Below are positions 9,863-37,537 of a stretch of 64,000 nt of DNA, in pieces. A model generated the notes under the pieces. It was not told the DNA's origin, did no database searches, and saw nothing but the letters and a program-made list of their open reading frames with translations. Where the stretch lies: the NCBI GenBank assembly GCA_017303895.1, contig JAFLBF010000006.1:78618-142617 (forward strand), written 5' to 3'. A program made the translations under genes and the position numbers. How positions within the stretch are numbered: position 1 is the stretch's first letter; each line of letters starts with the position of its first letter. Source of the DNA: Bacteroidota bacterium. GTDB lineage: Bacteria; Bacteroidota; Bacteroidia; 2-12-FULL-35-15.

Positions 9863-9886
9863 TGTAAACTCTTATTGATGATATTT

Positions 9887-20140: not shown

Positions 20141-20141
20141 T

Positions 20142-20612
20142 TTAGAGCGTATTGTCTTCTGCATACCATTCAGCATATGACGTAGGAGTCTCCTGCAATA
20201 ATAGATGATGAAGTTGAATATGAGAAGGGAGTTGTGCTTTAATTCGTCCTGCAATGTCGATTAGCATGTTTTCACATGTGGGTTGATAATCAACAAGAAC
20301 CAATTTTTGGAATAACAAATTTTCTTGTGCTAATGCCTTATGTGGTGATGTTCCGTTAAGTATGGTGGAATGATCCAACTCTTCAACAATTGGTTTCACG
20401 ATGGCTTTAAGATCGGTAAAATCCATGATCATCCCATGTTTTGGATTGCTTGAATCTTTTATTGGTTGACCTTTAACTGTCACTTCCAAATGATAGGAAT
20501 GGCCATGAACATTTTTACATGCCCCATCGTACCCGTAAAGTGCATGTGCCATTTCAAAATTAAATTTCTTTGTAATTCGAATATTATTCATTGGATCTGC
20601 TTTAGACAGCAA
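20142..20612 (-). CDS. queD: 6-carboxy-5,6,7,8-tetrahydropterin synthase (QueD / 6-pyruvoyl-tetrahydropterin synthase family). The start may instead be the internal MNNIRI.
   Basis: 156 aa. CxxxHGH motif (CKNVHGHSYHLEV), catalytic Glu/His, and typical size. Confidence 0.8.
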   Translation of the reverse strand: MLSKADPMNNIRITKKFNFEMAHALYGYDGACKNVHGHSYHLEVTVKGQPIKDSSNPKHGMIMDFTDLKAIVKPIVEELDHSTILNGTSPHKALAQENLLFQKLVLVDYQPTCENMLIDIAGRIKAQLPSHIQLHHLLLQETPTSYAEWYAEDNTL

Positions 20613-20655
20613 AAATAACTAAATCATTTCATTGTGAGGAATACTTTTGAGGTAT

Positions 20656-21366
20656 TCATTTGTGGCAGCATTTGCTGCATTCCGGTTTGCTAGCCGACAT
20701 TTCCGGACTGATATAAGGGATGCCAAGGTTCATTCCTCTTAAGATAAGGAGTAAAGCCATAGCAACCACAAATACAGGAATGGCTTTATTGATCTTGTTT
20801 CTGAAGTTAATGCTGATCGAATTTCCAAGCATTCCCAATACGAACATTGCAGGTAAGGTGCCAAGGCCGAACATTGCCATAAACAATGCTCCCTCTAAAC
20901 TACTGCCTGTAGCAATTGCTCCTGTAATTCCTAAATAAACCAATCCGCATGGTAAGAGTCCATTCAATGTGCCGATAAAGAAAAGAGAAGAATAGCTTCT
21001 TTTTTGAAACAACACCCCTAATTTTTGTTTTAGCTTACCTATATACGAATAGATAAATGCAGTTATTTTAAATCGCCCATACGCGCTACTTGGTAATAAA
21101 ACCATGATCAAAATAATTACTCCCAAAGTAATGGATAATGCTTGCTGATAGCCAGCTATTACAACACTTTGTCCTAATAATCCAAATAAGCTTCCAAATA
21201 AGGCATAGGTGAACATTCTTCCGAAGTTATACAATAGAGCACCTGCTATTTTTGAAGTGATTGAATTATGATTTAATGGCAGGGCTAGTGCAATAGGTCC
21301 GCACATTCCTACACAGTGAAAACTTCCTAAAAATCCTAATGTTATGGCAGCCCAAATAAATGTCAT
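20656..21366 (-). CDS. DsbD_2 / TauE-SafE-like membrane protein associated with cbb3 oxidase biogenesis
   Basis: 236 aa polytopic membrane protein with an HCVGMCGP motif, immediately downstream of ccoH. Confidence 0.6.
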   Translation of the reverse strand: MTFIWAAITLGFLGSFHCVGMCGPIALALPLNHNSITSKIAGALLYNFGRMFTYALFGSLFGLLGQSVVIAGYQQALSITLGVIILIMVLLPSSAYGRFKITAFIYSYIGKLKQKLGVLFQKRSYSSLFFIGTLNGLLPCGLVYLGITGAIATGSSLEGALFMAMFGLGTLPAMFVLGMLGNSISINFRNKINKAIPVFVVAMALLLILRGMNLGIPYISPEMSASKPECSKCCHK

Positions 21367-21368
21367 GA

Positions 21369-21815
21369 TTACGGCAATACGATGATCGATTCGTTAAAAT
21401 AATTTTTCCCCTCAACTGTCCAAGAAATTTGCATCTTGTACATTCCACTGCTTAATACAGATTTTGAAATGGTCTGTTTCAGATCAGCATTTAGTTGAAC
21501 CGGTGTTTTATAATCTTTCGATGCGTCAGAAGGTTTGAAGAATAGGATCTCACCGGCAATTTTTTTGTTTTTAAAGTCAATAGGGAATTGGATTTCTAAT
21601 TGATTTGCACCAATGGTATGTTTGATCTGATCGGATAATGCATTAGCATTATTCATCTCATTGATCTTGTCCTGATATTTTAGCTCTTTAGCATAATAAT
21701 CACTGCTTACCAATTCAATTTTTTGATTCATGCTAAATGTTACCATTACAATTACCAGTCCTACAAAACTGATATAAAGTGCAGCGATCTTTGTTCCCCA
21801 GCTAATTTGTGTCAT
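21369..21815 (-). CDS. ccoH: FixH/CcoH cbb3 oxidase assembly protein
   Basis: 148 aa with a single N-terminal TM segment and the FixH-family layout. It sits between ccoG and the DsbD_2 gene. Confidence 0.75.
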   Translation of the reverse strand: MTQISWGTKIAALYISFVGLVIVMVTFSMNQKIELVSSDYYAKELKYQDKINEMNNANALSDQIKHTIGANQLEIQFPIDFKNKKIAGEILFFKPSDASKDYKTPVQLNADLKQTISKSVLSSGMYKMQISWTVEGKNYFNESIIVLP

Positions 21816-21830
21816 GATATTTTGTTTTTT

Positions 21831-23246
21831 TTATTTTGGATTAATTTTAAATGGCCCTAAAAAGCTAGCATCAATACTTTCCAGTTTTTTGCCATTTGCG
21901 TATACACCAATTGTAATTTCCGTTTTTCTTTCTTTTACATCTTTTTTATCTAACTCTACAAAAAAGATGGCACCTCCCAAGCTTTGATCTTCAATCTTAA
22001 TACTGTCATCGCCTACTAATCGAATACTGCCTTGGTGTGATTCAAGAACAAGATCGATGTTTAGTTTTTCATGTGTTTTATTTACCAATTTAACATTGTA
22101 TAAGTTAGTGATCTTATTGTTAGGTTGATCCTGAAACAACATGCCGGGTGTTCTTAAAATGGTGGTCTCCACATCCGTTCTGCTTACAAGTAATGTCACC
22201 AATATGCCCAGTAAAACTAATAATACAACTGAATAGGCCACCATTCTTCCTGTGATCGAAAGTTTTTGTTTTTCAGCAATGCCTTTTTCAGAATCGTATC
22301 TGATCAAACCTTTAGGTAAACCAACACTATCCATCATGTGGTCGCAAGCATCAATACAAGCAGTGCAATTAACACATTCTAATTGGGTGCCATTTCTGAT
22401 ATCAATTCCGGTTGGACAAACCTTAACACATTGTGCACAATCAATACAGTCGCCTTTCTCTCTGGTTTCATTTTTTTTGTATTTAGCTCTTGGTTCTCCT
22501 CGTACATAATCATATGCTACAACAATAGAGTTTTTATCTAAGAGTACCCCTTGTAATCGCCCGTATGGACAAACAACAATACATGCCTGTTCACGAAACC
22601 ATAAGTAAACAAAAAAGAAAACAGTAGTAAAGATCAAAAGTGAAATGAATGTTCCAATATTTTTTGCCAGTCCTTCATGATACATTTTGAACAACTCATC
22701 CACACTGATGATATAAGCTAAAAATGTATTTGCTATTATGAATGAAACTATGAAAAAGGTAAAGGTTTTTCCTCCTCTTCTCATTATCTTATCAGCATCC
22801 CACTTCTTCTTGTTTAATGCTTTTTGGTGACTGGCATCACCTTCAAACCAATATTCGATCTTCCTGAAAACCATTTCCATGAAAATGGTTTGAGGGCATG
22901 CCCAACCACAAAATACCCTTCCGAATACCACCGTAAATAAAACAACAAATACAATGAACGTTAACATTCCTAATACAAATAGGAACAGATCCTGTGGCCA
23001 AAAGATAGCACCAAAAAGAATGAATTTTCTTTCGGGAATATTGATCAGAAAAAGAGGCTCCCCATCGTACTCTATAAATGGTAGTGTAAAAAACACTACC
23101 AGATATAGAATGCTTAGAATTGTTCGTTTGTTATATAATGCACCTTTGGGCTTTTGTGCAAAGATCCAATTTCTCTTCCCGTCTTTTATTGTTGCAATGG
23201 AGTCTCTAAATGATTCTTCTTCCTGCAACTTACTATCAGATTCCAT
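21831..23246 (-). CDS. ccoG: CcoG/FixG 4Fe-4S ferredoxin-type cbb3 oxidase accessory protein
   Basis: 471 aa. CGWACPQT motif and two 4Fe-4S CxxCxxCxxxCP clusters (CIDCAQCVKVCP; CVNCTACIDACD), followed by a C-terminal Ig-like domain. Confidence 0.85.
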   Translation of the reverse strand: MESDSKLQEEESFRDSIATIKDGKRNWIFAQKPKGALYNKRTILSILYLVVFFTLPFIEYDGEPLFLINIPERKFILFGAIFWPQDLFLFVLGMLTFIVFVVLFTVVFGRVFCGWACPQTIFMEMVFRKIEYWFEGDASHQKALNKKKWDADKIMRRGGKTFTFFIVSFIIANTFLAYIISVDELFKMYHEGLAKNIGTFISLLIFTTVFFFVYLWFREQACIVVCPYGRLQGVLLDKNSIVVAYDYVRGEPRAKYKKNETREKGDCIDCAQCVKVCPTGIDIRNGTQLECVNCTACIDACDHMMDSVGLPKGLIRYDSEKGIAEKQKLSITGRMVAYSVVLLVLLGILVTLLVSRTDVETTILRTPGMLFQDQPNNKITNLYNVKLVNKTHEKLNIDLVLESHQGSIRLVGDDSIKIEDQSLGGAIFFVELDKKDVKERKTEITIGVYANGKKLESIDASFLGPFKINPK

Positions 23247-23249
23247 AAT

Positions 23250-24458
23250 TTATTTTTTTACTTCTACTTTCGCGCTATCTACTACTGCTGCAACTGCTGT
23301 ACTATCAGTTGCTGTAGAATCAGCAACTGGGGCAACACCTTCTTCTACATAGAGGTCACCTTGTTTTTCTTTTCCGTTTGGAGGGTTTGTGCCTCTTATA
23401 CTTTTAACATAGGATGCTAGCATTTGTATTTCTGCTGGCGAGTATTGTGCTTGCCAAGACTGCATCCCCTTATCCGGGTATCCGTATTTAATTGTTTTAA
23501 AGATGTCTTTTATGCTTCCTCCATGTAACCAATAATCATCCGTTAAGTTTGGTCCAATCTGATTTCCTTCACCTAAACTGCCATGACAAGGAGCACATGT
23601 TGATTTGAAAATGTTCTCTCCTTCAGCAATTTTAGCTTTGTCTTCCAACATTGTAACAGATGTTTCATCCACATTGTTAGCACTAAGTTTTGCATATTCT
23701 TCTTTTGCAATTTTTGCCGCTTCAATTGACTTGTTATATTCTGTTGCTTGAAGATCTCCGGTTGCTGTTACGTGATAATGAACTAAATAAATAAAAGCAA
23801 AGATGATGGTAACATAGAATCCATATTTCCACCATGGTGGTAGATCGTTATCCAATTCTTTAATGCCATCATAATTGTGATCCATTAGAATGTCCGCTTC
23901 TTTTTCAAGTGAAACGGAAGCGTTTAATTTTTCCAATAAACTTGGTTCTGCTGCTATCACTTTTGCAGCGATCATTTCTTCAATTTCAGGTTTTACCATT
24001 AGCTGGATGCTATTAACCAAAACAAAAATGATCAGAATCTCAAATGCGATCACCGCTAAAAGACTATAGAATAATCCGCTGCTCAGTCCCATGTATCCAC
24101 TAACTGCCACAGCTGAAGTAGCTTCTTGAGCCATTACAGACTTAGCAGAGGACATAAGTGCGATCAGTGCAACAATACTAAGGATCTTTTTTCCATTATT
24201 GTTTTTCTCTTTTGTTGCATATGCAACGTTTTTCAAAACTCCTGCTAATACAGAAATAACGATCATTAGCAAAACAATAATGCTGAATAGACCAATGAAT
24301 AAAGGATTAGAGAATGCAGCAAACGTATCCTCTTCAGCTTTAGTCGCTGCATTTTGTGCATACACACTTAGTCCAAAGAACATGGATAACATCGTTAGCA
24401 AATACTTGCTGCCTGGAGCAAGTTTTTTGAATAGATTATTGATGGTTGAATATTTCAT
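23250..24458 (-). CDS. ccoP: cbb3 oxidase subunit III (CcoP/FixP) with a single c-type haem site
   Basis: 402 aa. FixP_N signature (DHNYDGIKELDNDLPPWW), one CxxCH (CAPCHG), and N-terminal TM segments. Confidence 0.7.
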   Translation of the reverse strand: MKYSTINNLFKKLAPGSKYLLTMLSMFFGLSVYAQNAATKAEEDTFAAFSNPLFIGLFSIIVLLMIVISVLAGVLKNVAYATKEKNNNGKKILSIVALIALMSSAKSVMAQEATSAVAVSGYMGLSSGLFYSLLAVIAFEILIIFVLVNSIQLMVKPEIEEMIAAKVIAAEPSLLEKLNASVSLEKEADILMDHNYDGIKELDNDLPPWWKYGFYVTIIFAFIYLVHYHVTATGDLQATEYNKSIEAAKIAKEEYAKLSANNVDETSVTMLEDKAKIAEGENIFKSTCAPCHGSLGEGNQIGPNLTDDYWLHGGSIKDIFKTIKYGYPDKGMQSWQAQYSPAEIQMLASYVKSIRGTNPPNGKEKQGDLYVEEGVAPVADSTATDSTAVAAVVDSAKVEVKK

Positions 24459-24469
24459 AATGATAGAGA

Positions 24470-24652
24470 TTAAAAATTGTTTTTATCATTTTTATCATCG
24501 AATGGCAAATTCTCTAATTCAATGATATGTTGCTTATTTACTTTTGCTACATAGATCAACAGTCCAATAAAGAATGCGAAAAATATAGTTAGTGATATCA
24601 TTGGGAAGATGCTTACTCCCGCAATTGATTCTAAATAGTTTATAAATTTCAT
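24470..24652 (-). CDS. ccoQ: CcoQ/FixQ-like small membrane subunit
   Basis: 60 aa single-TM protein between ccoNO and ccoP. Confidence 0.55.
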   Translation of the reverse strand: MKFINYLESIAGVSIFPMISLTIFFAFFIGLLIYVAKVNKQHIIELENLPFDDKNDKNNF

Positions 24653-24660
24653 GTGCTTTC

Positions 24661-26790
24661 TTATTTAGTTGTTACTACTTCGCTTGCTTTGATGTCTTTT
24701 CCTAATCTTTGTAGGTATGCGATCAATGCAATGATCTCTCTATCATTTGGTGTTTCAATTTTGTCTTTTTTCAAGCTCTCCGTAATTTCATCTGCTTGTT
24801 TGATCAAGTCGATATTCGCAATTTTATCATACCCATCAGGATAAGGAACGCCTAATTTTTGCATTGCTCTTATCTTTGCAGGAGTGGATGCTGTATCTAA
24901 AGCATCTTCTAACAACCAAGGGTATTGAGGCATGATAGAGTGCTCTGACACTGATGTAGGTGAATACATATGGTTGTAATGCCATGTGTTAGATCTTAAT
25001 CCTCCTTCACGAGCTAAATCCGGACCGGTACGTTTTGATCCCCATTGGAATGGATGGTCGTAAACAAATTCGCCAGCCTTTGAATATTCCCCGTAACGTT
25101 CAGTTTCGAAACGTAATGGACGGATCATTTGTGAATGACAGGTGTAACATCCCTCTCTGATATATATATCACGACCTTGAAGTTCAAGTGGAGTGTACGG
25201 TTTTACACTTGAGATCGTTGGAATGTTTGATTTTACTAAGAATGTAGGGATCATTTCTGCAATACCACCGATCAAGATAACCACTAAACTTACGATAAGC
25301 ATTTGGATAGGCTTGCGTTCGATCCATCTGTGCCAGTGTTCGCCTGCATGTGAACCATCGTGTGCTTTATCCAATGCAGGTGCTTCTGCTTCTTCATTGG
25401 CTAAGAACGATCCCGCTTTAACAGTTTTGATAATGTTGTAAGCCATCATTACGAAACCAACTAGGTACATCGTTCCACCGAGTGAACGCATGATGTACAT
25501 TGGGCGTAATTGAGTTACTGTTTCAAGGAAGTTAGTGTATTGTAAGAATCCGTTTGGTTTGAATTCTTGCCACATTAGATATTGCGTAAATCCAGCCCAA
25601 TACATTGGAATAGCATAGAATAAGATACCCAATGACCCTAACCAGAAATGCCAGTTAGCTAATTTAGTTGACCATAAATTGGTGCGGAACATTTTAGGTA
25701 CTAACCAATATAAGATACCAAAAGTTAAGAACCCATTCCAACCCAAGGCTCCAACGTGAACGTGAGCAATGATCCAGTCTGTAAAGTGTGCAATTGAATT
25801 TACTTTTTTCAATGATAACATTGGCCCTTCAAATGTTGCCATACCATAGGCAGTAACTGCCACCACCATGAATTTTAGCACAACGCTTTCACGCACTTTA
25901 TCCCAAGCACCACGTAATGTTAATAATCCATTGATCATTCCTCCCCATGATGGGGCGATCAACATAACAGAGAATACAACACCAAGTGATTGAGCCCAAT
26001 CAGGAAGTGCAGTGTATAATAAGTGGTGAGGACCAGCCCAAATATATAAGAAGATCAAAGCCCAAAAGTGGATGATCGATAAGCGATAAGAGTACACCGG
26101 ACGTTCAGCAGCTTTAGGAATAAAGTAATACATTAAACCTAAATACGGTGTAGTTAAGAAGAATGCTACTGCATTGTGTCCATACCACCATTGTACTAAG
26201 GCATCTTGTACACCTGCATACCAAGAATAACTTTTTAAGAAAGATACAGGCATCTCAAAAGAGTTCACAATGTGTAATACGGCAACAGTTACAAATGTGG
26301 CGATATAGAACCATATACCTACATATAAGTGGCGCTCTCTTCTTTTGATGATCGTTCCGAACATATTCCAACCGAACACCACCCAAATTAATGCAATCGC
26401 GATGTCAATTGGCCACTCTAATTCTGCATATTCTTTACCAGTTGTAATACCGAAAGGAATGGTTAGTGCAGCAGCAACAATGATCATCTGCCATCCCCAG
26501 AAATGGACCTTGCTTAAGGCATCACTGAACATACGCGCTTTACATAAACGTTGTAAAGAGTAATACACTCCCATAAAGATACCATTCCCCACAAAAGCGA
26601 AAATAACTGCATTTGTGTGCAGTGGTCTTAATCTACCAAATGTGGTGTACGACATCACATTCAGTTCCGGGAAAATAAATTGCAAGGCTACCCATAAGCC
26701 TACCAGCATACCCACAAACCCCCATAATATGGTGGCATAGGCAAATTGCTTTACAATTTTGTTGTCATAGGAAAATTTTTCTACTTCCAT
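24661..26790 (-). CDS. ccoNO: cbb3-type cytochrome c oxidase subunits I and II, fused (CcoN-CcoO)
   Basis: 709 aa. A haem-copper oxidase subunit I core with 12 TM segments and His ligands (…WAGPHHL…HFWLGS…HVHVG…). The C-terminal monohaem CcoO domain carries CYTCHS and RTGPDL. Confidence 0.92.
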   Translation of the reverse strand: MEVEKFSYDNKIVKQFAYATILWGFVGMLVGLWVALQFIFPELNVMSYTTFGRLRPLHTNAVIFAFVGNGIFMGVYYSLQRLCKARMFSDALSKVHFWGWQMIIVAAALTIPFGITTGKEYAELEWPIDIAIALIWVVFGWNMFGTIIKRRERHLYVGIWFYIATFVTVAVLHIVNSFEMPVSFLKSYSWYAGVQDALVQWWYGHNAVAFFLTTPYLGLMYYFIPKAAERPVYSYRLSIIHFWALIFLYIWAGPHHLLYTALPDWAQSLGVVFSVMLIAPSWGGMINGLLTLRGAWDKVRESVVLKFMVVAVTAYGMATFEGPMLSLKKVNSIAHFTDWIIAHVHVGALGWNGFLTFGILYWLVPKMFRTNLWSTKLANWHFWLGSLGILFYAIPMYWAGFTQYLMWQEFKPNGFLQYTNFLETVTQLRPMYIMRSLGGTMYLVGFVMMAYNIIKTVKAGSFLANEEAEAPALDKAHDGSHAGEHWHRWIERKPIQMLIVSLVVILIGGIAEMIPTFLVKSNIPTISSVKPYTPLELQGRDIYIREGCYTCHSQMIRPLRFETERYGEYSKAGEFVYDHPFQWGSKRTGPDLAREGGLRSNTWHYNHMYSPTSVSEHSIMPQYPWLLEDALDTASTPAKIRAMQKLGVPYPDGYDKIANIDLIKQADEITESLKKDKIETPNDREIIALIAYLQRLGKDIKASEVVTTK

Positions 26791-26794
26791 AATT

Positions 26795-27001
26795 TTAATT
26801 GTTATTGGTTAATTTTTCTTTTGTTGATATTGTTTTGTTTGATTCTTTTGAAGAAGGAGTAATTGTATCGTCAAAAAGCATACGTAGAGAAGGGGTGTAG
26901 TCATCGTCATATTGTCCATTCTTAACACTCCAGATGAACGCTAATAAAAAGCCAGCCGCCACCACAATGCTTACTGCTATTAAAATGATCAAAACGCTCA
27001 T
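26795..27001 (-). CDS. ccoS: CcoS/FixS cbb3 oxidase maturation protein
   Basis: 68 aa, single TM (LIILIAVSIVVAAGFLLAFIW) and then GQYDD. It lies 4 nt upstream of ccoNO. Confidence 0.7.
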   Translation of the reverse strand: MSVLIILIAVSIVVAAGFLLAFIWSVKNGQYDDDYTPSLRMLFDDTITPSSKESNKTISTKEKLTNNN

Positions 27002-27093
27002 GTGAAAATGCTTTTATTTATGCGTCAAAATTATTTTTTCGCGAATAGAGGAATTATGATAGCGGTCAGAAAAAAACATGATTAAAATCACAT

Positions 27094-27165
27094 TGCTATA
27101 AATAGCACAAAATCAATGATTTGCAATTGTTTTTCGTAAAGATTGCTAAAAATGATTTTTATCAT
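27094..27165. promoter_or_regulatory. Two palindromes in the ccoS upstream and divergent intergenic region: TGCTATAAATAGCA (27094-27107) and the Fnr/FixK-box-like ATGATTTTTATCAT (27152-27165, 5-4-5 spacing)
   Basis: Seen directly in the sequence. The second matches TTGAT-N4-ATCAA at 4 of 5 positions per half-site. Confidence 0.3.
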
Positions 27166-27239
27166 GGAAGTGGCTTGATAATGCTCATTTTAAATGAAAG
27201 TGAACGAGTCTACTTTTGCCCAAGATAAAACATAGTTAT

Positions 27240-27563
27240 ATGAAAAAACTGATAATAAGTATTGGGTTTATAATAGAAGCAGTTGCTGGGCTTGCTCAGA
27301 ATGGCATAGCTGTTAAAGTAGATGATTTAACGGTTGCTCAACATAAGGTTCTGCAAAGTGAATTGAGAGATTCCAAGATTTTGTATTCTTGTATTCCAGC
27401 CGGAATAATTGTGTTTCAAGAAAGTAGCAATCTGCCTGAATTGAAAAAGCAGGTTAACTCAGCTCTCAAAAAAGCAGAAATACTTGTCGAGCCTAAATTT
27501 ATCGAGAATTACTCGATAGCCTCAGCGGAGCAAGAATGCGCCACTTATAGAAAAATAGATTAA
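27240..27563 (+). CDS. Small secreted hypothetical protein, starting at the internal MKKLIISIGF. The ORF track begins at a TTG at 27216.
   Basis: Signal peptide followed by ~85 aa of mixed sequence. No family recognised. Confidence 0.4.
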   Translation: MKKLIISIGFIIEAVAGLAQNGIAVKVDDLTVAQHKVLQSELRDSKILYSCIPAGIIVFQESSNLPELKKQVNSALKKAEILVEPKFIENYSIASAEQECATYRKID

Positions 27564-27585
27564 TCACTCCTCAAAAAAATATTTT

Positions 27586-29561: not shown

Positions 29562-29612
29562 TAAAATGAGGGGGTGATTGGTTTACTCCCTTTTTTTTTC
29601 TATCTTAATATA

Positions 29613-30311: not shown

Positions 30312-30492
30312 TTAGGTCTCTCCTAACAATTGCCTGTAGGTACATATATTTTGAGCGTTTTTTTTCTGCCTTCTTTGTCTTTTTCTCTTGTTCTGATAAT
30401 CAGTTTGTTATGTCTTTTTGTATGACGAAAATCATTTTTTAGTAAAAATGGTGATTCTAATTTTACTAGAATTTTTCATAAAGACAATAACA

Positions 30493-31737
30493 ATGAGTAA
30501 ATTAGTCCCTAAACATACTATAAAGAAGACTAAATCTGTAAAGATGGATAGTAAAGAGGGGCTTCATGCATTATTTGCCTACGCTACAGAAGGCATTTTA
30601 ATAACCAATAGCAAGGGAGAGATCACAAAGATCAATCCGAGTGCAGAGCGTTTGTTTGGTTATGATGAAGGAGAGTTGGTAGGTAAAAAAATTGAATTGC
30701 TGGTCCCGCAAAAATACAGGGGAAATCATACTGATCACAGGGCAAAATATAATACGAATCCTCATCCCCGTTCAATGGGAAAAGGCATGACACTCTTTGG
30801 GGTGCGTAAAGATGGAAAAGAATTTCCGGTTGAGATCTCTTTAAGTAACTATACTACCAATGACGAGTTGTATGTGATCGCTTTTATCATTGATATTACA
30901 GAGCGCAAACAGGCGGAAGAAAAACTCAAATCATACTCTACAGAGTTAGAAAAGAGAGTGGAAGATAGAACATTGATGTTACGTGAAGCTATTGCTGAAC
31001 TCGAGAAGACAAAAGAAGAAATTCATGCGGCATTGGAAAAGGAAAAGGAACTGAATGATCTAAAGTCCCGGTTTGTTTCGATGGCATCTCACGAATTTAG
31101 AACTCCTTTGAGCACTATTTTGTCTTCGGTCTCACTAATTTCTAAATATAATTCACCGGATACTGAAGATAAAAAGCAAAAACATATTTCACGTGTGAAG
31201 TCATCTGTTAGCCATTTGACCGACCTGTTGAACGACTTTTTATCTCTGGGGAAATTGGAAGAGGGCGTAATAAAGGCTGCTCCTCAGCTTTTTAATATTG
31301 TTGAATTTTCAAAAGACGTTATTGTTGAATTGCAAGTAGTTGCTAAAGAAGGACAACAGATCAAATATGAACATACAGGAAGTATTCAGGAAGTTTATTT
31401 AGACAATAAACTCCTAAGAAATATTTATATAAACCTGTTATCCAATGCTATAAAATTTTCTCCAGAAAATGGACTGATCCTAATAAATACGGAGGTTGAT
31501 GAAAGGTTTATGCGCATAGAGGTAATTGATAGTGGAATCGGTATTTCAAAAGAAGATCAGGTGCATTTATTTGAACGTTTTTTTAGAGCTCAAAATGCTA
31601 CTAATATTCAAGGAACCGGTTTAGGATTAAACATTGTTGCAAAATATGTGGAGTTGATGGGTGGCGAGATCACTTTCACAAGCGAGCTAAATAAAGGAAC
31701 TACATTTTCTATAAAATTTCCTCTTGAGTTAAATTAA
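30493..31737 (+). CDS. PAS-domain sensor histidine kinase (cytoplasmic, FixL-like layout). The start is chosen at MSKLVP; the ORF track starts at 30418.
   Basis: PAS domain with an RKDGKEFPVEISLS beta-strand and a His-rich F-helix region (YRGNHTDHRAKY). H-box MASHEFRTPLSTI; HATPase N, G1 (DSGIGI) and G2 (GTGLGLNIV). No TM segments. Confidence 0.8.
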   Translation: MSKLVPKHTIKKTKSVKMDSKEGLHALFAYATEGILITNSKGEITKINPSAERLFGYDEGELVGKKIELLVPQKYRGNHTDHRAKYNTNPHPRSMGKGMTLFGVRKDGKEFPVEISLSNYTTNDELYVIAFIIDITERKQAEEKLKSYSTELEKRVEDRTLMLREAIAELEKTKEEIHAALEKEKELNDLKSRFVSMASHEFRTPLSTILSSVSLISKYNSPDTEDKKQKHISRVKSSVSHLTDLLNDFLSLGKLEEGVIKAAPQLFNIVEFSKDVIVELQVVAKEGQQIKYEHTGSIQEVYLDNKLLRNIYINLLSNAIKFSPENGLILINTEVDERFMRIEVIDSGIGISKEDQVHLFERFFRAQNATNIQGTGLGLNIVAKYVELMGGEITFTSELNKGTTFSIKFPLELN

Positions 31738-31753
31738 TTTAAAAATAAAGAAC

Positions 31754-32812
31754 ATGAAAACAATTTTACTGATCGAAGATAATGACGAAATGCGTGAGAA
31801 TACGACTGAGATTTTAGAGTTGGATAATTATAAGGTTCTTGCTGCTCCTAATGGAAAAATAGGGGTGGAATTAGCACAAAAAAACAAAGTGGATCTGATC
31901 ATTTGTGATGTAATGATGCCGGTTTTGGATGGTTATGGTGTTCTTCATTTACTTAGTAAGAATCCGGAAACAGCAAGTATTCCCTTTATATTTTTAACGG
32001 CAAAGGCCGAGAGAAATGATTTTAGAAAAGGAATGGAAATGGGGGCTGATGATTATATCACTAAGCCATTTGATGACATTGAACTATTGAATGCTGTTCA
32101 AGGACGTTTGAAAAAAACAGAAATGTTGAAAATGGAATTTGCTAAGAATATAGAAGGACTTGATGAGTTTTTTAGTGAAATAAAAAATTTGGAAGACTTG
32201 GCAAAATTATCGAACGAACGCAAAACAAAAACATACAAGAAGAAAGAAACGATCTTTTCAGAAGATAGCTATCCGAATGGAATTTATTTCATCAACAAAG
32301 GGAAAGTCAAAACATTCAAGACCAATGCAGATGGTAAAGAATTTATTACTGGTTTGCATAAAGAAGGCGATTTTATTGGGTATCTAGCTCTCCTAGAGGA
32401 TAGTAAGTATAATGAATCAGCAGCTGCCTTGGAAGATGCAGAGATCTGTTTGATCTCCAAAGACGATTTTTTCACATTGATCTATAAGAATAGCGAAGTT
32501 TCAAAAAAATTCATCAGAATGCTTTCTGATAATCTTGCCGAAAAAGAAGAAGCATTGCTAAAATTAGCTTATAATTCAGTTCGTAAGCGCGTGGCAGAAG
32601 CATTGGTTACTTTGAAAAGCCGTTATCAAAAAGATGATTCAAAAAATTTCTCCATGTCTATTTCCCGTGAGGATCTGGCTAATATGGCCGGTACATCTCC
32701 GGAAACAGCAATTCGTACCTTAAGTGATTTTAAAGAAGAGAAACTGATCGAGATCCATGGCGGAAATATCACTTTACTAAACGCTGAGAAATTGGCAAAA
32801 ATGAAGAATTAA
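31754..32812 (+). CDS. Response-regulator receiver fused to a cNMP-binding Crp/Fnr-type domain and HTH (REC–Crp fusion)
   Basis: 352 aa. REC domain: LLIEDND, phospho-acceptor Asp in LIICDVMMP, and LTAK. A beta-roll cNMP-binding domain follows (ETIFSEDSYPNGIYFINKGKVK…GDFIGYLALLED), then a C-terminal Crp-type HTH (REDLANMAGTSPETAIRTL). Confidence 0.8.
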   Translation: MKTILLIEDNDEMRENTTEILELDNYKVLAAPNGKIGVELAQKNKVDLIICDVMMPVLDGYGVLHLLSKNPETASIPFIFLTAKAERNDFRKGMEMGADDYITKPFDDIELLNAVQGRLKKTEMLKMEFAKNIEGLDEFFSEIKNLEDLAKLSNERKTKTYKKKETIFSEDSYPNGIYFINKGKVKTFKTNADGKEFITGLHKEGDFIGYLALLEDSKYNESAAALEDAEICLISKDDFFTLIYKNSEVSKKFIRMLSDNLAEKEEALLKLAYNSVRKRVAEALVTLKSRYQKDDSKNFSMSISREDLANMAGTSPETAIRTLSDFKEEKLIEIHGGNITLLNAEKLAKMKN

Positions 32813-35220
32813 AGTCCTTTTCTTTTTGCAATTAAATTGCTTACTCCGGTTGTGAACAAAACAATCGTAATTGAGCTTAAAGGCATTAGGATGGCAGCCA
32901 TTACCGGAGATAAGGTGCCTTGTACCGCTAATCCTAGTCCAATTGAATTATAGATTAGTGATACTCCAAAGCTAGCAATAATGATCTTTTTCCCGGCTTT
33001 AGCAAATTGAATAAATGTTGTCAGATCATTGAATTTTGAACCGTCAATTATTGCATCACAAGCAGGAGAAAAATTATTTACATCATCTGATACTGCAATA
33101 CCAACATCACTCTGTTTTAGAGCTCCTGCATCATTTAATCCATCACCGATCATGATCACTTTGTGTTCATTTTCTTGCAGTTGTTTGATGTAATTTAATT
33201 TGTCAGCCGGACTTTGATTAAAATTCAGGTCGCTGTTCAATGGAAATAATTTTTCTAAAACCTTTTTCTCGGCATCATTATCACCTGATAGTAATGCCAG
33301 GCTGTAGTCACTTTCCAATGATCCAATGAGAGGAACTAATCCCTCACGATATTGATTTTTGATAGTGAATTTGCCATACACTTCTCCTTCGATCTCTAGA
33401 AAAACAGAACTTGCAGCATTGTTTACGGTCGATGATGTGCTGCTTTGTGTAATAAAACTCTCAGAACCTAATCTAACCTTATACCCATCAACAATAGCTT
33501 CGATCCCTTTTCCGGTGATCTCTCTATAATCTTTAGGTTCAATTATTTTAGAAAGTGGAAGGGATTCCAAAATACGCTTACTCAGAGGATGTGTAGATTG
33601 GATCACTAATGAGCGGATCAATTGCTGTTCAACTTCAGTTAAACGTTTCCCGGAGTATTCAACAAGAGCTTCTTTGTTTTGAGTGATGGTTCCTGTTTTA
33701 TCGAAAACAATAGTATCGGATTCCGCTATTTTTTCAATGATATCAGCATTCTTTAAATAGAATTTGTTTCGTCCTAATATTCTTAAAATGTTTCCATTCG
33801 TAAATGTGGATGATAATAGTAGTGCACACTGACAAGCAACGATCAAAACAGATGTAAATGCATTTAGTGCTCTGGAAAAATCCGATGGTAACCAATATAA
33901 AAAGCCTCCTGTTGCTAATATGAAAATTCCGTATGTAATATACTTTCCGGCTCTGTTTACAAATGTGTCGGTGTTTTCCTGCTCATTGGTAAATGCATCA
34001 TTGTTCCATAGTTGTGTCAAATAACTTTGTGAGGTTTCTTTGATCACCTCTAATTCAATAGCGCTTCCCACCTGTTTTCCTCCTGCATAAATGATCTCAC
34101 CTAATGTCTTTTGAACGGGAACAGATTCTCCGGTTACAAAGCTGTAATCAATACTCGCATTGCCTTTAAACAGAATTGCATCAGCAGGGATCAATTCTCC
34201 ATTTTTAATGATGATCCGGTCACCCACCTTGATGTTTGTAACAGGCATGGTGCTTTCTGCATCATTTTTTAAAACAGTAACTGCAATCGGGAAATAGGAT
34301 TTGTAATCTCTTTCAAAGGAAAGTGTATTATAGGTCTTATTTTGAAATAACCTTCCAAGTAGCATGAAGAATACGATGCCACTCATAGAATCAAAATATC
34401 CGGCACCGGTTCCACTTATGATCTCATATACACTTCTGCTGAATGTAACGAGAATCGCTAATGCAATAGGAGCATCAATATTCAGATATTTCTGTTGAAG
34501 ACTTTTCCAGGCGGAGACAAAAAAGTCAGATGCACTGTAAAAGAATACCGGCAGTGCTAAAAACAAATTTAGATAGCTGAATAAGGTTTTTAAGCTTTCT
34601 TCCTGAATGCTGCTGACTGCAAAATAGTCGGGCAAGCTTAACATCATGATGTTGCCAAAACAAAAGCCTGCTACTCCGATTTTAAATAGTTGTTTCCGGT
34701 TGTATTTGCTTGTTTTTGGTTTTTCAACATCATTTAAACTGATGTGTGGCTCATATCCTATAAAGGCTAATAATTCTACTGCTTTTCGTAAAGTGATCTC
34801 TTTTTCTTTGTAATAGATGCTAACTTCCTTCTTTAAAAAATTAACTTGTGATTTGATCACAGCAGGATTGATGCGATGTAGATTTTCTAATAGCCAAACA
34901 CAGGATGCACAATGTACTTGAGGAAGATAAAATGTAACATGTGTTTGTTCACCGTTGGTAAACGTGATCAGTTTTTGTTTGATCTTTTGATCATCTAAAT
35001 ACGTGTACTTTTCGGAATTAAATTTTCCTTTTGCAGTAATGCCCGGATTTTTCGATATGTCGTAATACTGGCAGAGATTATTTTCATTAATGATCTCGTA
35101 CACCAATTTACATCCATCACAACAGAATACTTTCTCTTCTATATGAAGATCGTGGGAAGTACAATCATTACCACAATGATAACATTTGGTTTCAGTTGTG
35201 TTATGTAATGATGTTTGCAT
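32809..35220 (-). CDS. ccoI: Copper-translocating P-type ATPase of the CcoI/FixI type
   Basis: 803 aa. N-terminal CYHCGNDC and CCDGC metal-binding motifs, TM CPC-type region (ACQCAL), DKTGT phosphorylation motif and GDGLND hinge. Confidence 0.85.
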   Translation of the reverse strand: MQTSLHNTTETKCYHCGNDCTSHDLHIEEKVFCCDGCKLVYEIINENNLCQYYDISKNPGITAKGKFNSEKYTYLDDQKIKQKLITFTNGEQTHVTFYLPQVHCASCVWLLENLHRINPAVIKSQVNFLKKEVSIYYKEKEITLRKAVELLAFIGYEPHISLNDVEKPKTSKYNRKQLFKIGVAGFCFGNIMMLSLPDYFAVSSIQEESLKTLFSYLNLFLALPVFFYSASDFFVSAWKSLQQKYLNIDAPIALAILVTFSRSVYEIISGTGAGYFDSMSGIVFFMLLGRLFQNKTYNTLSFERDYKSYFPIAVTVLKNDAESTMPVTNIKVGDRIIIKNGELIPADAILFKGNASIDYSFVTGESVPVQKTLGEIIYAGGKQVGSAIELEVIKETSQSYLTQLWNNDAFTNEQENTDTFVNRAGKYITYGIFILATGGFLYWLPSDFSRALNAFTSVLIVACQCALLLSSTFTNGNILRILGRNKFYLKNADIIEKIAESDTIVFDKTGTITQNKEALVEYSGKRLTEVEQQLIRSLVIQSTHPLSKRILESLPLSKIIEPKDYREITGKGIEAIVDGYKVRLGSESFITQSSTSSTVNNAASSVFLEIEGEVYGKFTIKNQYREGLVPLIGSLESDYSLALLSGDNDAEKKVLEKLFPLNSDLNFNQSPADKLNYIKQLQENEHKVIMIGDGLNDAGALKQSDVGIAVSDDVNNFSPACDAIIDGSKFNDLTTFIQFAKAGKKIIIASFGVSLIYNSIGLGLAVQGTLSPVMAAILMPLSSITIVLFTTGVSNLIAKRKGL

Positions 35221-35317
35221 AAGAAAAATTAAAAGCGGCAGCCGGTATTTCTCTAAACCCTAAATGCTATGAAACATTCTACGGATACCTGCCAGCCGCT
35301 TTTTTTATGGTTGGTAA

Positions 35318-35539
35318 TTAGTGTTTTTTTGCGTGAGCTTCTCCTTCTGTCATGGTGCTAAATACCGCATAAAGGATACCAGCCATTGAAATTAGGAAGT
35401 AAACAATATACTCAATACGTCCACCATCAATCAAGGTGTTGTTTACATTAACATTTGCAGGGTATTCCATAAACGCCCATCTGAAAGGGAATATAAATAC
35501 CAATAGAACAACGATGAATCCAATTACTTTCTTTTGCAT
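35318..35539 (-). CDS. Small two-TM membrane protein (hypothetical)
   Basis: 73 aa with two hydrophobic helices, 97 nt upstream of ccoI. Confidence 0.35.
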   Translation of the reverse strand: MQKKVIGFIVVLLVFIFPFRWAFMEYPANVNVNNTLIDGGRIEYIVYFLISMAGILYAVFSTMTEGEAHAKKH

Positions 35540-35632
35540 AGCTGTGAGTTTTTAGTTTGATACTTCAAAAGTATTTCTGTTTGTATTTTTAAAATATGAT
35601 AATGGTCAGTTTTCCTGCTGATTCCTGTCAGA

Positions 35633-36007
35633 TTAGTCTTCTACAGGCTTACTGAACTCCAATGCTTGTTCATTTTGTTTGGCTAGTGTCCAATCATCCG
35701 TGGAAGTTGTTTCTAACCAAACCTTCCCCGATTTTCTGAATACCTGAGCCGACAAGCCGAAATGCTCTTGCAGCATTTGTTCTAATTCTGATACTTTTTG
35801 TTTAGCACTGATCTTTAATGAACCGTTGCTATGAGTTTTTCTACACTCTCCTAAAGTTTTGGAATTGTTACGTATTAAACTTTTTGGCGAAGCCTCGCCT
35901 TTTCCATGTGATCTGGAAAAAAATTCGATTTTCAGGAAAGGGAATAATTTATTGAATTCGTCCTGAAGGTTTTTGATTGTTTTATTGTCTGAAATAAGTA
36001 GTTCCAT
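35633..36007 (-). CDS. Hypothetical protein (124 aa)
   Basis: ORF 7 nt downstream of the USP gene on the same strand. No recognisable family. Confidence 0.4.
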   Translation of the reverse strand: MELLISDNKTIKNLQDEFNKLFPFLKIEFFSRSHGKGEASPKSLIRNNSKTLGECRKTHSNGSLKISAKQKVSELEQMLQEHFGLSAQVFRKSGKVWLETTSTDDWTLAKQNEQALEFSKPVED

Positions 36008-36014
36008 TGTAATA

Positions 36015-36839
36015 TTAATCGTGTATTGTTAATAAAGGGATGTGTGTATGAAATGCCATTTTTTTTGTGTTGCTGGCATGAAAGAGGCTACTGATGATAT
36101 TGTGTTTGCGTGGGATCATGATCACCAGATCAATATTATGTTTTTCAACAAAATCATTGATTGCATAGGTGATATCATCATTCTCCGGGAAAAATAAACT
36201 GTGATTGATATTATCGAATATTGATTCAAGTTGAACTCCTGCAATTGCCTTTTCAAAATTCGGTTTTTCATCCGGTGCTACAATGTTCAGAATGTGTAAA
36301 TGGGCATTGAATGTTTTCGCCCACATTTTGATCTTTTCCATTGCAGCAGTATCTTTCACTTTTATTAGATCGCATGCAAACGCAATGTTAGAGATAGGTT
36401 TGAATATGCTGTCATTCGGAACCACTAAAACCGGACAATTGATGTTATGGATTGCAATGGTTGCATTGCTACCTATCAGGATCTCGGCCATTTTACCAAG
36501 TCCATTGATACCCATGATCACCAGATCAATATTGTTTTCCGAAATATATTCTTTCATTTCATCAATCAAAAATCCTGGCTTAACCACGCAGCTAGTTTGA
36601 CCTGTGAACCCGTGTGCTAGCTTTAAGTCATTTTCAAACTTTTGTAAAGCTCCCAAGCTATCGCTTTCTAGATTTTCATAGGTCGGCATCACAATTGCCG
36701 CTTCACTCGTGATCATTGGAATATGATACACGTGGAAAAAGGTGATCTTTGCATTGGCTATCTTAGCCAATGCAATGGCATAGGAAGCAGCAGCTTTAGA
36801 ACTATCCGAAAAATCAGTTGGTACCAGAATGTTTTTCAT
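36015..36839 (-). CDS. Tandem universal stress protein (UspA family)
   Basis: 274 aa with two Usp repeats (MKNILVPTDFSDSS… and a second domain with GSNA-type ATP-binding glycines, DLVIMG…G…GS). Confidence 0.8.
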   Translation of the reverse strand: MKNILVPTDFSDSSKAAASYAIALAKIANAKITFFHVYHIPMITSEAAIVMPTYENLESDSLGALQKFENDLKLAHGFTGQTSCVVKPGFLIDEMKEYISENNIDLVIMGINGLGKMAEILIGSNATIAIHNINCPVLVVPNDSIFKPISNIAFACDLIKVKDTAAMEKIKMWAKTFNAHLHILNIVAPDEKPNFEKAIAGVQLESIFDNINHSLFFPENDDITYAINDFVEKHNIDLVIMIPRKHNIISSLFHASNTKKMAFHTHIPLLTIHD

Positions 36840-37381
36840 TAGATGATGTTTTTAAGTTCGTTTAATTTAGGATACAGATAGTTTACCTCAATGAATGAAT
36901 ACACGAGGTAAACATGTTTGAGTTTACCTAATTGATGATATACACCTTTTAAGGTAGCTGAGCTATTGGCTTTTATTTCAAATCCCTTGGTAAGATCATC
37001 CAGCTGATCTAAATTTGATTTAATCCTTTTATGCTCATTTTCAATATTTTTGATCACTTTATCCAGGATCTCTAACTTCACCCCATTGATCCCTTTTTTA
37101 TTCAGAATATTTTTAATGAAAGGGAACATAATATGCTGCTCTTCTCCTTTGTGCTGTTCCAGAATATCTCTGAATTTTGCAAAGCTATTGTAGATCTCAG
37201 GCATATTAGTTACTTCCGGTTGATCTACTTTCACACATGCATGTAGCTGTGTGTCAATTACAGGGAGATTCTCTGAAAAATAATCATGAAATTCGCTGGT
37301 AATGAATTTCATTAATTTATTCAGATCAAGATCCGATACGTCCTCAGCAAAACTGATATTGATATTATTTACTAATTGCAT
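36839..37381 (-). CDS. Hemerythrin-like (HHE / RIC-type) domain protein, putative
   Basis: 180 aa helical protein with EFHDYFSEN and HKGEEQHIMFP motifs resembling the HxxxE … H-K-x-E-E-x-x-L-F-P motifs of hemerythrin/RIC domains. Its stop overlaps the USP start (TAATG). Confidence 0.45.
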   Translation of the reverse strand: MQLVNNINISFAEDVSDLDLNKLMKFITSEFHDYFSENLPVIDTQLHACVKVDQPEVTNMPEIYNSFAKFRDILEQHKGEEQHIMFPFIKNILNKKGINGVKLEILDKVIKNIENEHKRIKSNLDQLDDLTKGFEIKANSSATLKGVYHQLGKLKHVYLVYSFIEVNYLYPKLNELKNII

Positions 37382-37537
37382 GAAACAAAATTATTCCAAG
37401 CCCTATTTTTAAAGCATGATTTGAGTCAATTCAAAACATGATAATTATCATACAATTTTGCCCTTAAGCTCAAAAATATCTTGCCGACTCAGTGGATTTC
37501 TATTACTTTTGCCCTGATTTTTAAAAGGAAAAAGATT

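Follow-up and report, generated by a model that had tools for sequence, protein, structure and literature searches.

A PAS kinase and a receiver-Crp regulator as a candidate two-gene low-oxygen switch of aerobic Bacteroidota

Which regulator lets aerobic Bacteroidota (flavobacteria, Chitinophagaceae, Sphingobacteriia and Cytophagia) sense oxygen and induce their high-affinity cbb3 oxidase is apparently not known. This question is raised anew by two adjacent genes in a stretch of 64 kb from a Bacteroidota bacterium (contig JAFLBF010000006.1, positions 78,618 to 142,617; hereafter the window), which encode a soluble PAS-domain histidine kinase and a response regulator whose receiver (REC) domain is fused to a Crp/Fnr-type body. 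Do these two proteins form an oxygen switch, and which genes would it control? A preliminary description of the locus had likened them to rhizobial FixL, FixJ and FixK and had tied them to the nearby cco genes for the cbb3 oxidase. Its observation was correct and independent comparative evidence supports its central idea, with corrections: the module is an analogue rather than a fusion of the Fix proteins, the distal pocket of its sensor is not of the FixL type, and its architecture is abundant. Judged on sequence comparison, the module is very probably an uncharacterised, genuine hypoxia regulator, and we consider it fairly probable that the whole chain set out below holds, with the two genes acting as a cognate low-oxygen switch of aerobic Bacteroidota. 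The module is thus a concrete candidate regulator for the phylum, and the operator sequence, promoter geometry and target list given here make the hypothesis directly testable.

A phased operator ahead of predicted hypoxia genes

For comparison with the window, we fetched 80 loci, each spanning 10 kb to either side of a relative of the regulator, which gave orthologue sets of 81 regulators (including that of the window) and 68 kinases. We treated as fully flanked the 46 loci that extend 8 kb or more to either side of the regulator. Among the 80 loci are those of the culturable carriers Ferruginibacter sp. SUN002 (L080), which shows the complete arrangement of kinase, regulator and ccoP-ccoNO-ccoS-ccoI, Persicobacter diffluens NBRC 15940 (L041) and Lacihabitans lacunae CECT 7956 (L074). 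Within the window alone the operator signal was weak: the exact core occurred 8 times against 3.35 expected (3 of 100 shuffles reached 8), the canonical Fnr box TTGAT-N4-ATCAA was not enriched with one mismatch allowed (14 against 9.3 expected, equalled in 7 of 100 shuffles), and an inverted-repeat scan of four intergenic regions returned mainly AT-rich noise. Counting palindromes upstream of the recurrent neighbour genes across loci brought out TGAT-N4-ATCA, which was present in 15 of 23 ccoS upstream regions. The density of this core was 0.107 per kb overall (1.43 Mb of loci) versus 3.0 per kb upstream of ccoS, with 1.0 upstream of orf124, 0.67 upstream of universal stress protein (usp) genes and 0.53 upstream of the kinase gene. 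The operator consensus is [A/C]TGAT-N4-ATCA[T/G]; over 58 sites, 86% of half-sites have A or C as the outer base and 7% have T.

These operators stand at fixed distances from the promoter. With the spacing d defined as the distance between the operator centre and the first base of TAnnTTTG, the -7 box of Bacteroidota sigma-A promoters, d came to exactly 51 nt for 13 ccoS promoters out of the 15 with a core site. Over all loci and in both orientations, 84 operator/-7-box pairs lay within 120 nt of each other. A spacing of exactly 51 nt accounted for 40 of these, from 29 loci, and one of exactly 29 nt for 16; three pairs stood at 52 nt, and each remaining distance bin held one or two. Four control palindromes of the same composition produced no distance peak (largest bin, 2). 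In mapped flavobacterial promoters the -7 box occupies -12 to -5 (PMC9723704), so spacings of 51 and 29 nt centre the operator at -63.5 and -41.5. When the sites were scored with a weight matrix, one was found in 21 of 23 ccoS promoters and was phased in 18 of the 23; of 89 regions upstream of the kinase, 31 had operators, which were phased in 10 cases. Position -41.5 is the classical class II activator position, and -63.5 lies near class I.

Sorted by gene, 61 phased sites precede ccoS (11), the orf124 family (10), DoxX (8), Usp (4), Hsp20 (3), the kinase (2), ccoI (2) and others, and hemerythrin is also among the phased targets. As the genes behind phased sites are mutually non-homologous, the spacing is a functional constraint and not inherited promoter sequence. 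The analysis shows, in silico, a phased operator in activator register before a coherent set of predicted hypoxia genes, the module's own operon included.

The genes that recur around the regulator fit this set. Among fully flanked loci, 25 of 46 carry cco genes within 10 kb and 41 of 46 carry cco, usp or orf124, and together with the ccoS promoter counts this bears out the connection to cco that had been drawn from the window alone. Over all 81 loci, the most recurrent neighbour families are the kinase (76), orf124 (42), tandem Usp (30 loci, 51 copies), ccoNO (28) and ccoI (28), followed by a 127-aa family (27), ccoP, ccoG, DsbD_2, FixH, DoxX (19), TerB-like (9) and Hsp20 (6). The family of ~127 aa (for example, locus L018, 8268-8648, minus strand), present in 27 loci, has no significant Pfam or NCBIfam match, and no member lies within 10 kb of the regulator in the window. 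A stand-alone Fnr in the vicinity was considered and rejected: the 64-kb window encodes no other Crp/Fnr homologue, and the 30 families that recur most often near the regulator do not include a second Crp/Fnr family.

Similar gene sets respond to oxygen elsewhere. Oxygen limitation in Flavobacterium psychrophilum leads to strong induction of the cbb3 operon, which is co-expressed with hemN, and to higher expression of a uspA; the available part of that report names no regulator (PMC9723704). In Myxococcus xanthus, the oxygen-sensing NmpRSTU system controls a universal stress protein, a cbb3 oxidase with a P-type ATPase, and a hemN-hemerythrin pair (PMC11841059). Because this gene set recurs here under a different type of regulator, the analogy argues for oxygen availability as the signal.

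The regulator, its kinase and their relation to the Fix proteins

We assigned domains with Pfam, for which all matches of the window kinase and regulator lay above the gathering cut-offs, and scored family membership with NCBIfam models and their curated cut-offs. The regulator matches Response_reg at residues 4-116 (E=1.6e-28; 99.5 bits, cut-off 30.2), cNMP_binding at 159-243 (E=7.8e-22; 77.5 bits, cut-off 27.5) and HTH_Crp_2 at 278-349 (E=2e-18; 66.6 bits, cut-off 27). Its layout is a REC domain (1-123), a linker of ~30 aa, a beta-roll (157-243), a dimerisation helix and a helix-turn-helix (HTH) domain (278-349). REC is the most conserved part and nearly invariant: E8, D9, D52, Y101 and K104 are identical in 81 of 81 regulators and T82 in 80, with the phospho-acceptor Asp52 encoded at 31907-31909. 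The recognition helix, E317-T-A-I320-R321 (nt 32702-32716), is likewise kept, with E317 in all 81 sequences, I320 in 80 and R321 invariant in two regulator alignments, and relatives as distant as ~40% identity retain an E-x-x-[IV]-R helix. The retained catalytic residues and the Pfam matches agree with the first reading of the protein as a phosphorylatable receiver on an Fnr-like body. That reading was also right that an Fnr-type Cys cluster is missing, as the N-terminus is the REC domain and the only cysteines are C51 and C232. Cys51 (codon 31904-31906), directly before Asp52 in the motif IICDVMMP, is invariant in 81 of 81 regulators, and a redox-sensitive thiol at this position is conceivable.

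Conservation within the regulator is lowest in the beta-roll. When the Crp positions that contact cAMP were aligned by eye, Glu72 corresponded to Tyr210 (75 of 81), Arg82 to Glu, Asp or Ser at 221, and Ser83 to Ser or Thr at 222; lacking the cAMP-contact residues, the beta-roll is probably a scaffold. Among known structures, PDB entry 2gau aligns to residues 144-349 (E=5e-25) and 5cvr, Aliivibrio fischeri Fnr, covers residues 155-350 (E=1e-18), and a PDB search found no solved structure with REC and a Crp body in one chain. An AlphaFold2 model has confidently folded domains with secondary structure of the Crp type, and a disordered linker (residues 124-156; predicted local distance difference test below 50). 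Ile320 occupies the position of Ser212 in Escherichia coli Fnr, while Glu317 and Arg321 are kept. We take Ser212 to read the outer T of the Fnr box, and the A or C at the outer base of the present operator fits its replacement by Ile320.

The kinase gene, whose coordinates had been given exactly, encodes PAS_9/PAS at residues 26-137 (E=1.7e-14; PAS span approximately residues 24-140, nt 30562-30912), HisKA at 191-258 (1.6e-14) and HATPase_c at 304-412 (1.7e-28). The H-box is SHEFRTP, with phospho-acceptor His200 at codon 31090-31092. A membrane-segment check with a Kyte-Doolittle window of 19 residues reached a maximum of 1.2 in the window kinase, with no segment of transmembrane grade, and none of the 68 orthologous kinases exceeded 1.6. 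By this measure the kinase is cytoplasmic, and its first description as a soluble PAS kinase stands. Because an operator and a -7 box with d=29 precede ATG 30493, we favour this codon as the true start over ATG 30448 or TTG 30418.

The order and architecture of the two genes also stand as first described, apart from the spacer, which is 16 nt (31738-31753) and not 17. Of the 77 loci with enough upstream sequence, 68 encode a homologue of the window kinase no more than 400 nt ahead of the regulator gene and in the same orientation; of 76 pairs, 67 have overlapping genes or a gap of 30 nt at most. On the strength of this conserved arrangement, we take the two proteins to be a cognate two-component system.

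Such fusions had been called unusual, which they are only against the textbooks. A word-indexed protein search gave at least 8,000 proteins at E<=1e-10, the best 120 of which all have the REC, cNMP_binding and HTH_Crp_2 architecture (351-381 aa; 69-100% identity). An exhaustive HMMER scan of 1.84 billion representatives of 50%-identity clusters gave 1,927 at E<=1e-30; the best 150 are mostly single-stretch, near full-length matches, down to 39% identity, with a minority of fragments. Contigs from GTDB, at one genome per species, include at least 530 stretches that encode a relative of the regulator, and the relatives listed span Chitinophagaceae, Sphingobacteriaceae, Flavobacteriales, Cytophagales and unclassified Bacteroidia. 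A scan for this architecture and its neighbours thus returns an abundant, large and conserved Bacteroidota family, accompanied by the kinase, cco, usp and orf124. Database labels for the regulator read only "response regulator" or "CRP-like cAMP-binding protein/CheY-like". We found no published description of the fused regulator or, for Bacteroidota, of FixL-like kinases or oxygen regulators, and Galperin's 2006 classification of response regulators may list the architecture. The REC-Crp module is therefore widespread in Bacteroidota and apparently unstudied.

The preliminary description had also suggested that FixJ and FixK were collapsed into one polypeptide. A literal fusion of the two genes is ruled out by the NCBIfam scores. 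The whole kinase scores 116.8 bits against the FixL equivalog NF041777 (cut-off 850), its best stretch being the PAS region (kinase residues 24-153 to FixL 125-254). The receiver has its best matches in PleD, VanR and PhoB, of the PleD/OmpR type; FixJ models are absent from the 25 best NCBIfam matches of the regulator, and the output domain is Crp-type and not the LuxR/GerE HTH of FixJ. The Crp part matches Fnr best (95.5 bits, cut-off 228), then CRP (84.9, cut-off 266), and reaches 76.1 bits against Caulobacter FixK (NF050806, cut-off 300). Because the kinase core and the receiver are not of the FixL and FixJ types, these scores mark the module as a functional analogue of FixL-FixJ-FixK, independently assembled from different kinase and receiver lineages.

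The PAS domain itself resembles FixL far more closely. In a single-sequence phmmer search of all PDB chains, FixL haem domains came first (E=1e-18, gapless over residues 31-146), followed by entry 10jx and then EcDOS/DosP at 1e-10, whereas non-haem PAS domains all fell at or above 1e-3, the best with a known other cofactor being YtvA (1e-3). A profile built from 20 orthologous PAS domains had DosP, FixL and 10jx as its top 14 PDB matches (6e-20 to 2e-17), with the next PAS domain at 7e-7. The claim that the F-helix aligns with that of FixL, including the proximal His, was upheld: YRGNHTDHRAKY, kinase residues 75-86, aligns without gaps to the F-helix of Bradyrhizobium FixL (BjFixL), placing His79 opposite His200 of that protein, and also opposite DosP His77, and the position is His in 65 of 68 orthologous kinases. 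Arg93, kept in 61 of 68, aligns to BjFixL H214 and RmFixL R208, a position that we assume contacts a haem propionate; R83, R93, M95 and G96 are the invariant residues of the kinase family. PDB entries 10jx and 10jy, a 145-aa PAS domain of a "multi-sensor signal transduction histidine kinase", are clearly of the same subtype (profile E=5e-19) and have in common with the window the signature PERF..H..HR..Y...P..RTMG; our literature search found no paper for either entry. These alignments assign the PAS domain specifically to the FixL/DosP haem-PAS clade and indicate that the kinase is probably a FixL-like, haem-binding sensor.

Some partner kinases come closer still to FixL. Seven have Arg at the position of FixL Arg220, and at locus L061, from a metagenome-assembled genome, a kinase (8823-9980) has a near-canonical FixL pocket, HDAYIHHY...IIGIGREV, with the Ile-Ile pair and the distal Arg (BjFixL match E=2e-30). 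It adjoins a regulator (10001-11053) that is an orthologue at 62% identity, beside ccoS-ccoNO-ccoP, and its sensor sits on the same kinase core as in the orthologous systems. By this comparison, a bona fide FixL-type sensor was exchanged into the same signalling slot during evolution, and the Arg-bearing kinases and the L061 pocket support both haem and oxygen sensing in the family.

Beyond the orthologues, the partner changes. A distant regulator in an isolate genome (L083, CP025096.1) is paired with a different PAS kinase, and no adjacent kinase was found at L081, L084 and L085, whose contigs are short or differently arranged, so a partner kinase universal across the family is ruled out. Because the partner of distant members differs or is not adjacent, the predicted haem-PAS pairing holds for the orthologous subfamily (at least 60% identity) only. 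At L084 (1-9787), a REC-Crp paralogue of 40% identity lies amid Usp, nitroreductase, BON, CBS-peptidase, pyridoxamine-oxidase-like and baeRF genes, a set reminiscent of the mycobacterial DosR dormancy regulon.

Proposed mechanism, rival readings and known systems

We propose that, in the cytoplasmic kinase, His79 of the FixL/DosP-clade PAS domain holds a b-type haem and that a gas ligand, or the redox state of the iron, alters autophosphorylation at His200 of the kinase. By analogy with FixL, and judging from cbb3 induction under oxygen limitation, the kinase would most likely be active when oxygen is scarce. The phosphoryl group would then pass to Asp52 of the regulator. There, REC would take the N-terminal place that the Cys cluster for [4Fe-4S] has in Fnr, and its phosphorylation-driven dimerisation would yield a DNA-binding dimer, much as cluster acquisition does in Fnr. 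The E-x-x-I-R helix would bind [A/C]TGAT-N4-ATCA[T/G] and activate cbb3, ccoI, usp, Hsp20, DoxX, hemerythrin, orf124 and the kinase operon, with this regulator, rather than a paralogue, reading the operator. Two proteins would in this way do the job of FixL to FixJ to FixK.

If true, this would be a new mode of Crp/Fnr activation, with a fused receiver in the role of cofactor or nucleotide, as well as a new output class for response regulators and a haem-PAS sensor whose distal pocket is neither that of FixL nor that of DosP. Whether the proposal extends to the whole phylum we regard as evenly poised: in that form, REC-Crp regulators would be the master hypoxia regulators of aerobic Bacteroidota and the first Crp/Fnr factors switched by Asp phosphorylation of a fused receiver, served by a haem-PAS kinase with a non-FixL, non-DosP pocket and governing a phylum-wide and hitherto unrecognised oxygen regulon (cbb3 and its maturation, Usp, Hsp20, DoxX, hemerythrin and an orphan-fold 124-aa protein) from two quantised activator positions on sigma-A promoters. 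Such a system would be relevant to fish pathogens and to wastewater and rhizosphere Bacteroidota at oxic-anoxic interfaces, and synthetic biology in Bacteroidota could use it as a compact oxygen-responsive switch of two genes.

Several points weigh against this proposal. Arg220 of BjFixL contacts bound O2. Its position is Met99 in the window kinase and varies in the family (M 29, L 10, K 9, R 7, I 5 and others), so FixL-type O2 chemistry cannot be assumed, and DosP Met95 and Arg97 also align to variable positions. The predicted distal pocket is unlike that of any characterised O2-sensing haem-PAS domain; the signal could be redox state, NO or CO, and the PAS domain may not bind haem at all. 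A survey of ~3 million PAS domains placed FixL and DosP in one cluster (cluster 3), in which haem binding is determined primarily by the F-alpha His (PMC10468136). As 40% of that cluster is without the His, and presumably answers to another signal (PMC10468136), membership in the clade is by itself no proof of haem. On the side of the regulator, the AlphaFold2 model is uninformative on how REC packs against and controls the Crp body (predicted template modelling score 0.39). As to the targets, cco genes turn up within 10 kb in just 54% of the fully flanked loci, the operators in the kinase and orf73 promoters of the window each have one core mismatch, and the operator is assigned to this regulator by co-localisation, apparent autoregulation and the recognition helix, within loci of 10 kb to either side. 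Every step of this chain, from haem binding and the ligand through the direction of the switch to phosphotransfer and DNA binding, is one that we infer from sequence.

The variable distal positions, and the members of the PAS cluster without the His, which presumably have other specificities (PMC10468136), would also suit a genuine two-component system with the same regulon whose PAS domain binds no haem and responds to a metabolite, to redox or energy state through another cofactor, or to a protein partner. The module would then be a general stress or stationary-phase switch, as a regulon rich in Usp, Hsp20, TerB-like and DoxX genes might suggest, and the different PAS kinase at L083 fits this as well. 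We nevertheless consider a haem-free sensor unlikely, given the near-invariance of His79 in the orthologues, the more than 10 orders of magnitude between FixL/DosP-group and other PAS matches in the family-profile search, the near-canonical FixL pocket in the orthologous system at L061, and core targets (cbb3, ccoI, hemN and hemerythrin) that are oxygen-specific, cbb3 and hemN being induced by oxygen limitation in a flavobacterium.

Other readings leave the sensor aside and concern the regulator. The TGAT-N4-ATCA core is common to classical Fnr and FixK boxes, Bacteroidota genomes usually encode several Crp/Fnr paralogues, and our data cover the surroundings of each regulator and one 64-kb window, so the phased operators might be bound by a separate stand-alone Crp/Fnr protein, with the REC-Crp regulator reading other sites as a mere neighbour or member of the regulon. 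Such a protein is, however, encoded neither in the window nor by the 30 most recurrent neighbour families. Moreover, operator sites are ~28-fold enriched next to the regulator's neighbours and precede the kinase-regulator operon itself, as expected for autoregulation, and the outer base suits the invariant Ile320, if Ser212 has the role that we presume for it; we therefore think this reading very unlikely. It is also quite unlikely, in our judgement, that the regulator needs two inputs, REC phosphorylation and a small ligand in the beta-roll (or haem, as in CooA), through which an oxygen signal could enter as well. The beta-roll does pass the Pfam cNMP_binding threshold, other Crp/Fnr members bind 2-oxoglutarate, haem or other ligands there, and Tyr210 is conserved at the position of CRP Glu72. 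Yet the beta-roll is poorly conserved beside the nearly invariant REC, the cAMP contacts of CRP are replaced (Glu72 by Tyr, Arg82 by Glu, Asp or Ser), and a metal cofactor would find no conserved pair of His or Cys residues, the only invariant Cys being C51 in REC.

The proposed REC-Crp switch would share features with several known systems. Like rhizobial FixL-FixJ-FixK, and its hFixL-FxkR-FixK variant (PMC7888657), it has a kinase of the haem-PAS clade, would pass its signal to the regulator by phosphorylation, would end in a Crp/Fnr-type protein without a Cys cluster on a TGAT-N4-ATCA core, and has fixNOQP/ccoNOQP, fixGHIS/ccoGHIS and hemN among its predicted targets. It differs in having two proteins instead of three, with the receiver fused to the Crp/Fnr body and no transcriptional relay, and in the lineages of kinase core and receiver, the variable distal Arg, an outer operator base of A or C instead of T, and promoters of the Bacteroidota -33/-7 type. 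With Fnr (from E. coli, or A. fischeri as in 5cvr) it has in common the beta-roll, dimerisation helix and HTH, a sensory module N-terminal of the beta-roll, the Glu and Arg of the E--SR motif, and operators at activator positions (-41.5 and about -61.5). Unlike Fnr, the regulator has a phosphorylatable receiver in place of the [4Fe-4S] Cys cluster and would not sense oxygen itself; Ser212 is replaced by Ile, and the score of 95.5 bits stays below the Fnr cut-off of 228.

In Mycobacterium tuberculosis, the haem kinases DosS and DosT act on DosR (DevSR), the regulator of a hypoxia and dormancy regulon rich in universal stress proteins and alpha-crystallin/Hsp20. The L084 neighbourhood, with its Usp, nitroreductase, CBS and BON genes, resembles that regulon, whereas haem is bound there in a GAF and not a PAS domain, DosR has a NarL/LuxR-type output, and the regulon is not centred on cbb3. 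NmpRSTU of M. xanthus is likewise an oxygen-sensing two-component pathway with nearly the same gene set (PMC11841059), but it has a globin-coupled sensor kinase, a multi-step phosphorelay and an NtrC-like sigma-54 activator as output. MrpC, also of M. xanthus, is a Crp/Fnr regulator that depends on an N-terminal Thr/Ser motif region and not on a cyclic nucleotide (bioRxiv 10.1101/737593). In the present module, the predicted control differs from that of MrpC in lying with an Asp-phosphorylated fused receiver and not with a Thr/Ser motif. The control of MrpC is reportedly dependent on a Ser/Thr kinase.

Genes and operators of the window

Around the module there are five transcription units, each with a phased operator (Table 1). 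Operator 1 is followed by the -7 box TAATTTTG at 27033-27026 (minus strand), ahead of the ccoS operon, and is predicted to drive ccoS-ccoNO-ccoP-ccoG-ccoH and onwards. Operator 2 has its -7 box, TACTTTTG, at 27211-27218, ahead of the plus-strand genes that run from ATG 27241 towards the kinase. Operator 3, the best-scoring of the window, is followed by TAATTTTG at 37393-37386 (minus strand), ahead of orf180-usp-orf124; Usp and orf124 families also lie behind phased operators in other loci, as does ccoI. The orf73-ccoI promoter precedes the orf73 start codon (ATG at 35539). The putative promoter of the module has one mismatch in each element, operator and -7 box, and is held with lower confidence.

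Table 1. Coordinates of the module, its predicted targets and its operators in the window. Scores are those of the operator weight matrix; d is the spacing defined in the text.
Feature	Position	Strand	Basis
Putative autoregulatory promoter of the kinase-regulator operon: weak operator TGACGAAAATCA 30423-30434, near-consensus -7 box TAATTTTA 30458-30465	30423..30465	+	score 10.1; d=29
Soluble sensor histidine kinase, 414 aa (ATG 30493, stop at 31737)	30493..31737	+	Pfam, PDB phmmer, no transmembrane segment
Codon of His79, predicted proximal haem ligand	30727..30729	+	gapless alignments to BjFixL His200 and DosP His77
Response regulator, 352 aa (ATG 31754, stop at 32812): REC, linker, beta-roll, dimerisation helix, HTH	31754..32812	+	Pfam, conservation, AlphaFold2
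orf73 (35318-35539) and ccoI/FixI-type Cu P1B-ATPase (32809-35220)	32809..35539	-	Pfam E1-E2_ATPase, ATPase-cat_bd, HMA (ccoI)
orf73-ccoI promoter: weak operator TGACCATTATCA 35597-35608, perfect -7 box TACTTTTG 35573-35566	35566..35608	-	score 10.9; d=29
Predicted main target: ccoS 26795-27001, fused ccoNO 24661-26790, ccoP 23250-24458	18785..27001	-	Pfam/NCBIfam
Same cco cluster, continued: ccoG 21831-23246, FixH/ccoH 21369-21815, DsbD_2 20656-21366, hemN 18785-20254		-	
Operator 1 ACATGATTAAAATCACAT (plus-strand letters), core 27079-27090	27076..27093	-	score 17.7; d=51
Operator 2 AAATGATTTTTATCATGG, core 27153-27164	27150..27167	+	score 17.6; d=52
Predicted target operon: hemerythrin/RIC-like orf180 36839-37381, tandem Usp 36015-36839, orf124 35633-36007	35633..37381	-	Pfam/NCBIfam
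Operator 3 ACATGATAATTATCATAC (plus-strand letters), core 37439-37450	37436..37453	-	score 17.9; d=51

The palindromes first noted at 27094-27165 as likely binding sites correspond only partly to these operators. They include the core of operator 2, minus its outermost flanks, while the ccoS-proximal core of operator 1 was missed and the segment 27094-27107 is unrelated. This last segment is a perfect palindrome in its own right, TGCTATAAATAGCA, situated between the two divergent operators and bearing no relation to TGAT-N4-ATCA.

That the module lies embedded in the cco locus, between ccoI and ccoS, is loosely true. On one side ccoI flanks it directly, convergent with the regulator gene and overlapping its end by 4 nt. 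On the other, ccoS lies 3.5 kb upstream of the kinase, with four unrelated plus-strand open reading frames (27216-30311) in between: orf115, a choice-of-anchor L protein, a PorE/CHU_0125-like OmpA protein and orf245, none with an obvious respiratory link. The real start of orf115 is probably ATG 27241, and no homologue of it was found in the other 80 loci. Genes related to the outer membrane or the type IX secretion system were seen behind a putative operator only in the genome of the window. Directly upstream of ccoI, orf73 encodes 73 aa with two hydrophobic stretches and no family match, and could be an accessory subunit of cbb3 or CcoI.

At the far end of the cco cluster, the HemN of the window passes TIGR00538 (447 versus 325 bits). 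A one-mismatch Fnr-like box, TTGATAATCAACAA (20283-20296), lies ~30 nt upstream of the hemN start (20254, minus strand), and hemN may have an internal promoter besides being read through from the cco operon. A second, ordinary two-component system, composed of an OmpR-type regulator (14735-15424) and a HisKA/HATPase kinase (15440-16471), is encoded on the plus strand some 2.3 kb past the hemN end of the cluster. Farther away, in the segment 2660-2705 (minus strand), a strong operator, AAATGATAAGCATCATTT (score 16.6), stands 29 nt from a near-consensus -7 box, TTTATTTG, upstream of an open reading frame at 1302-2645. Its 447-aa product appears by eye to be FAD-dependent and kynurenine 3-monooxygenase-like, lies beside a kynureninase-like gene, and may be an additional oxygen-consuming target.

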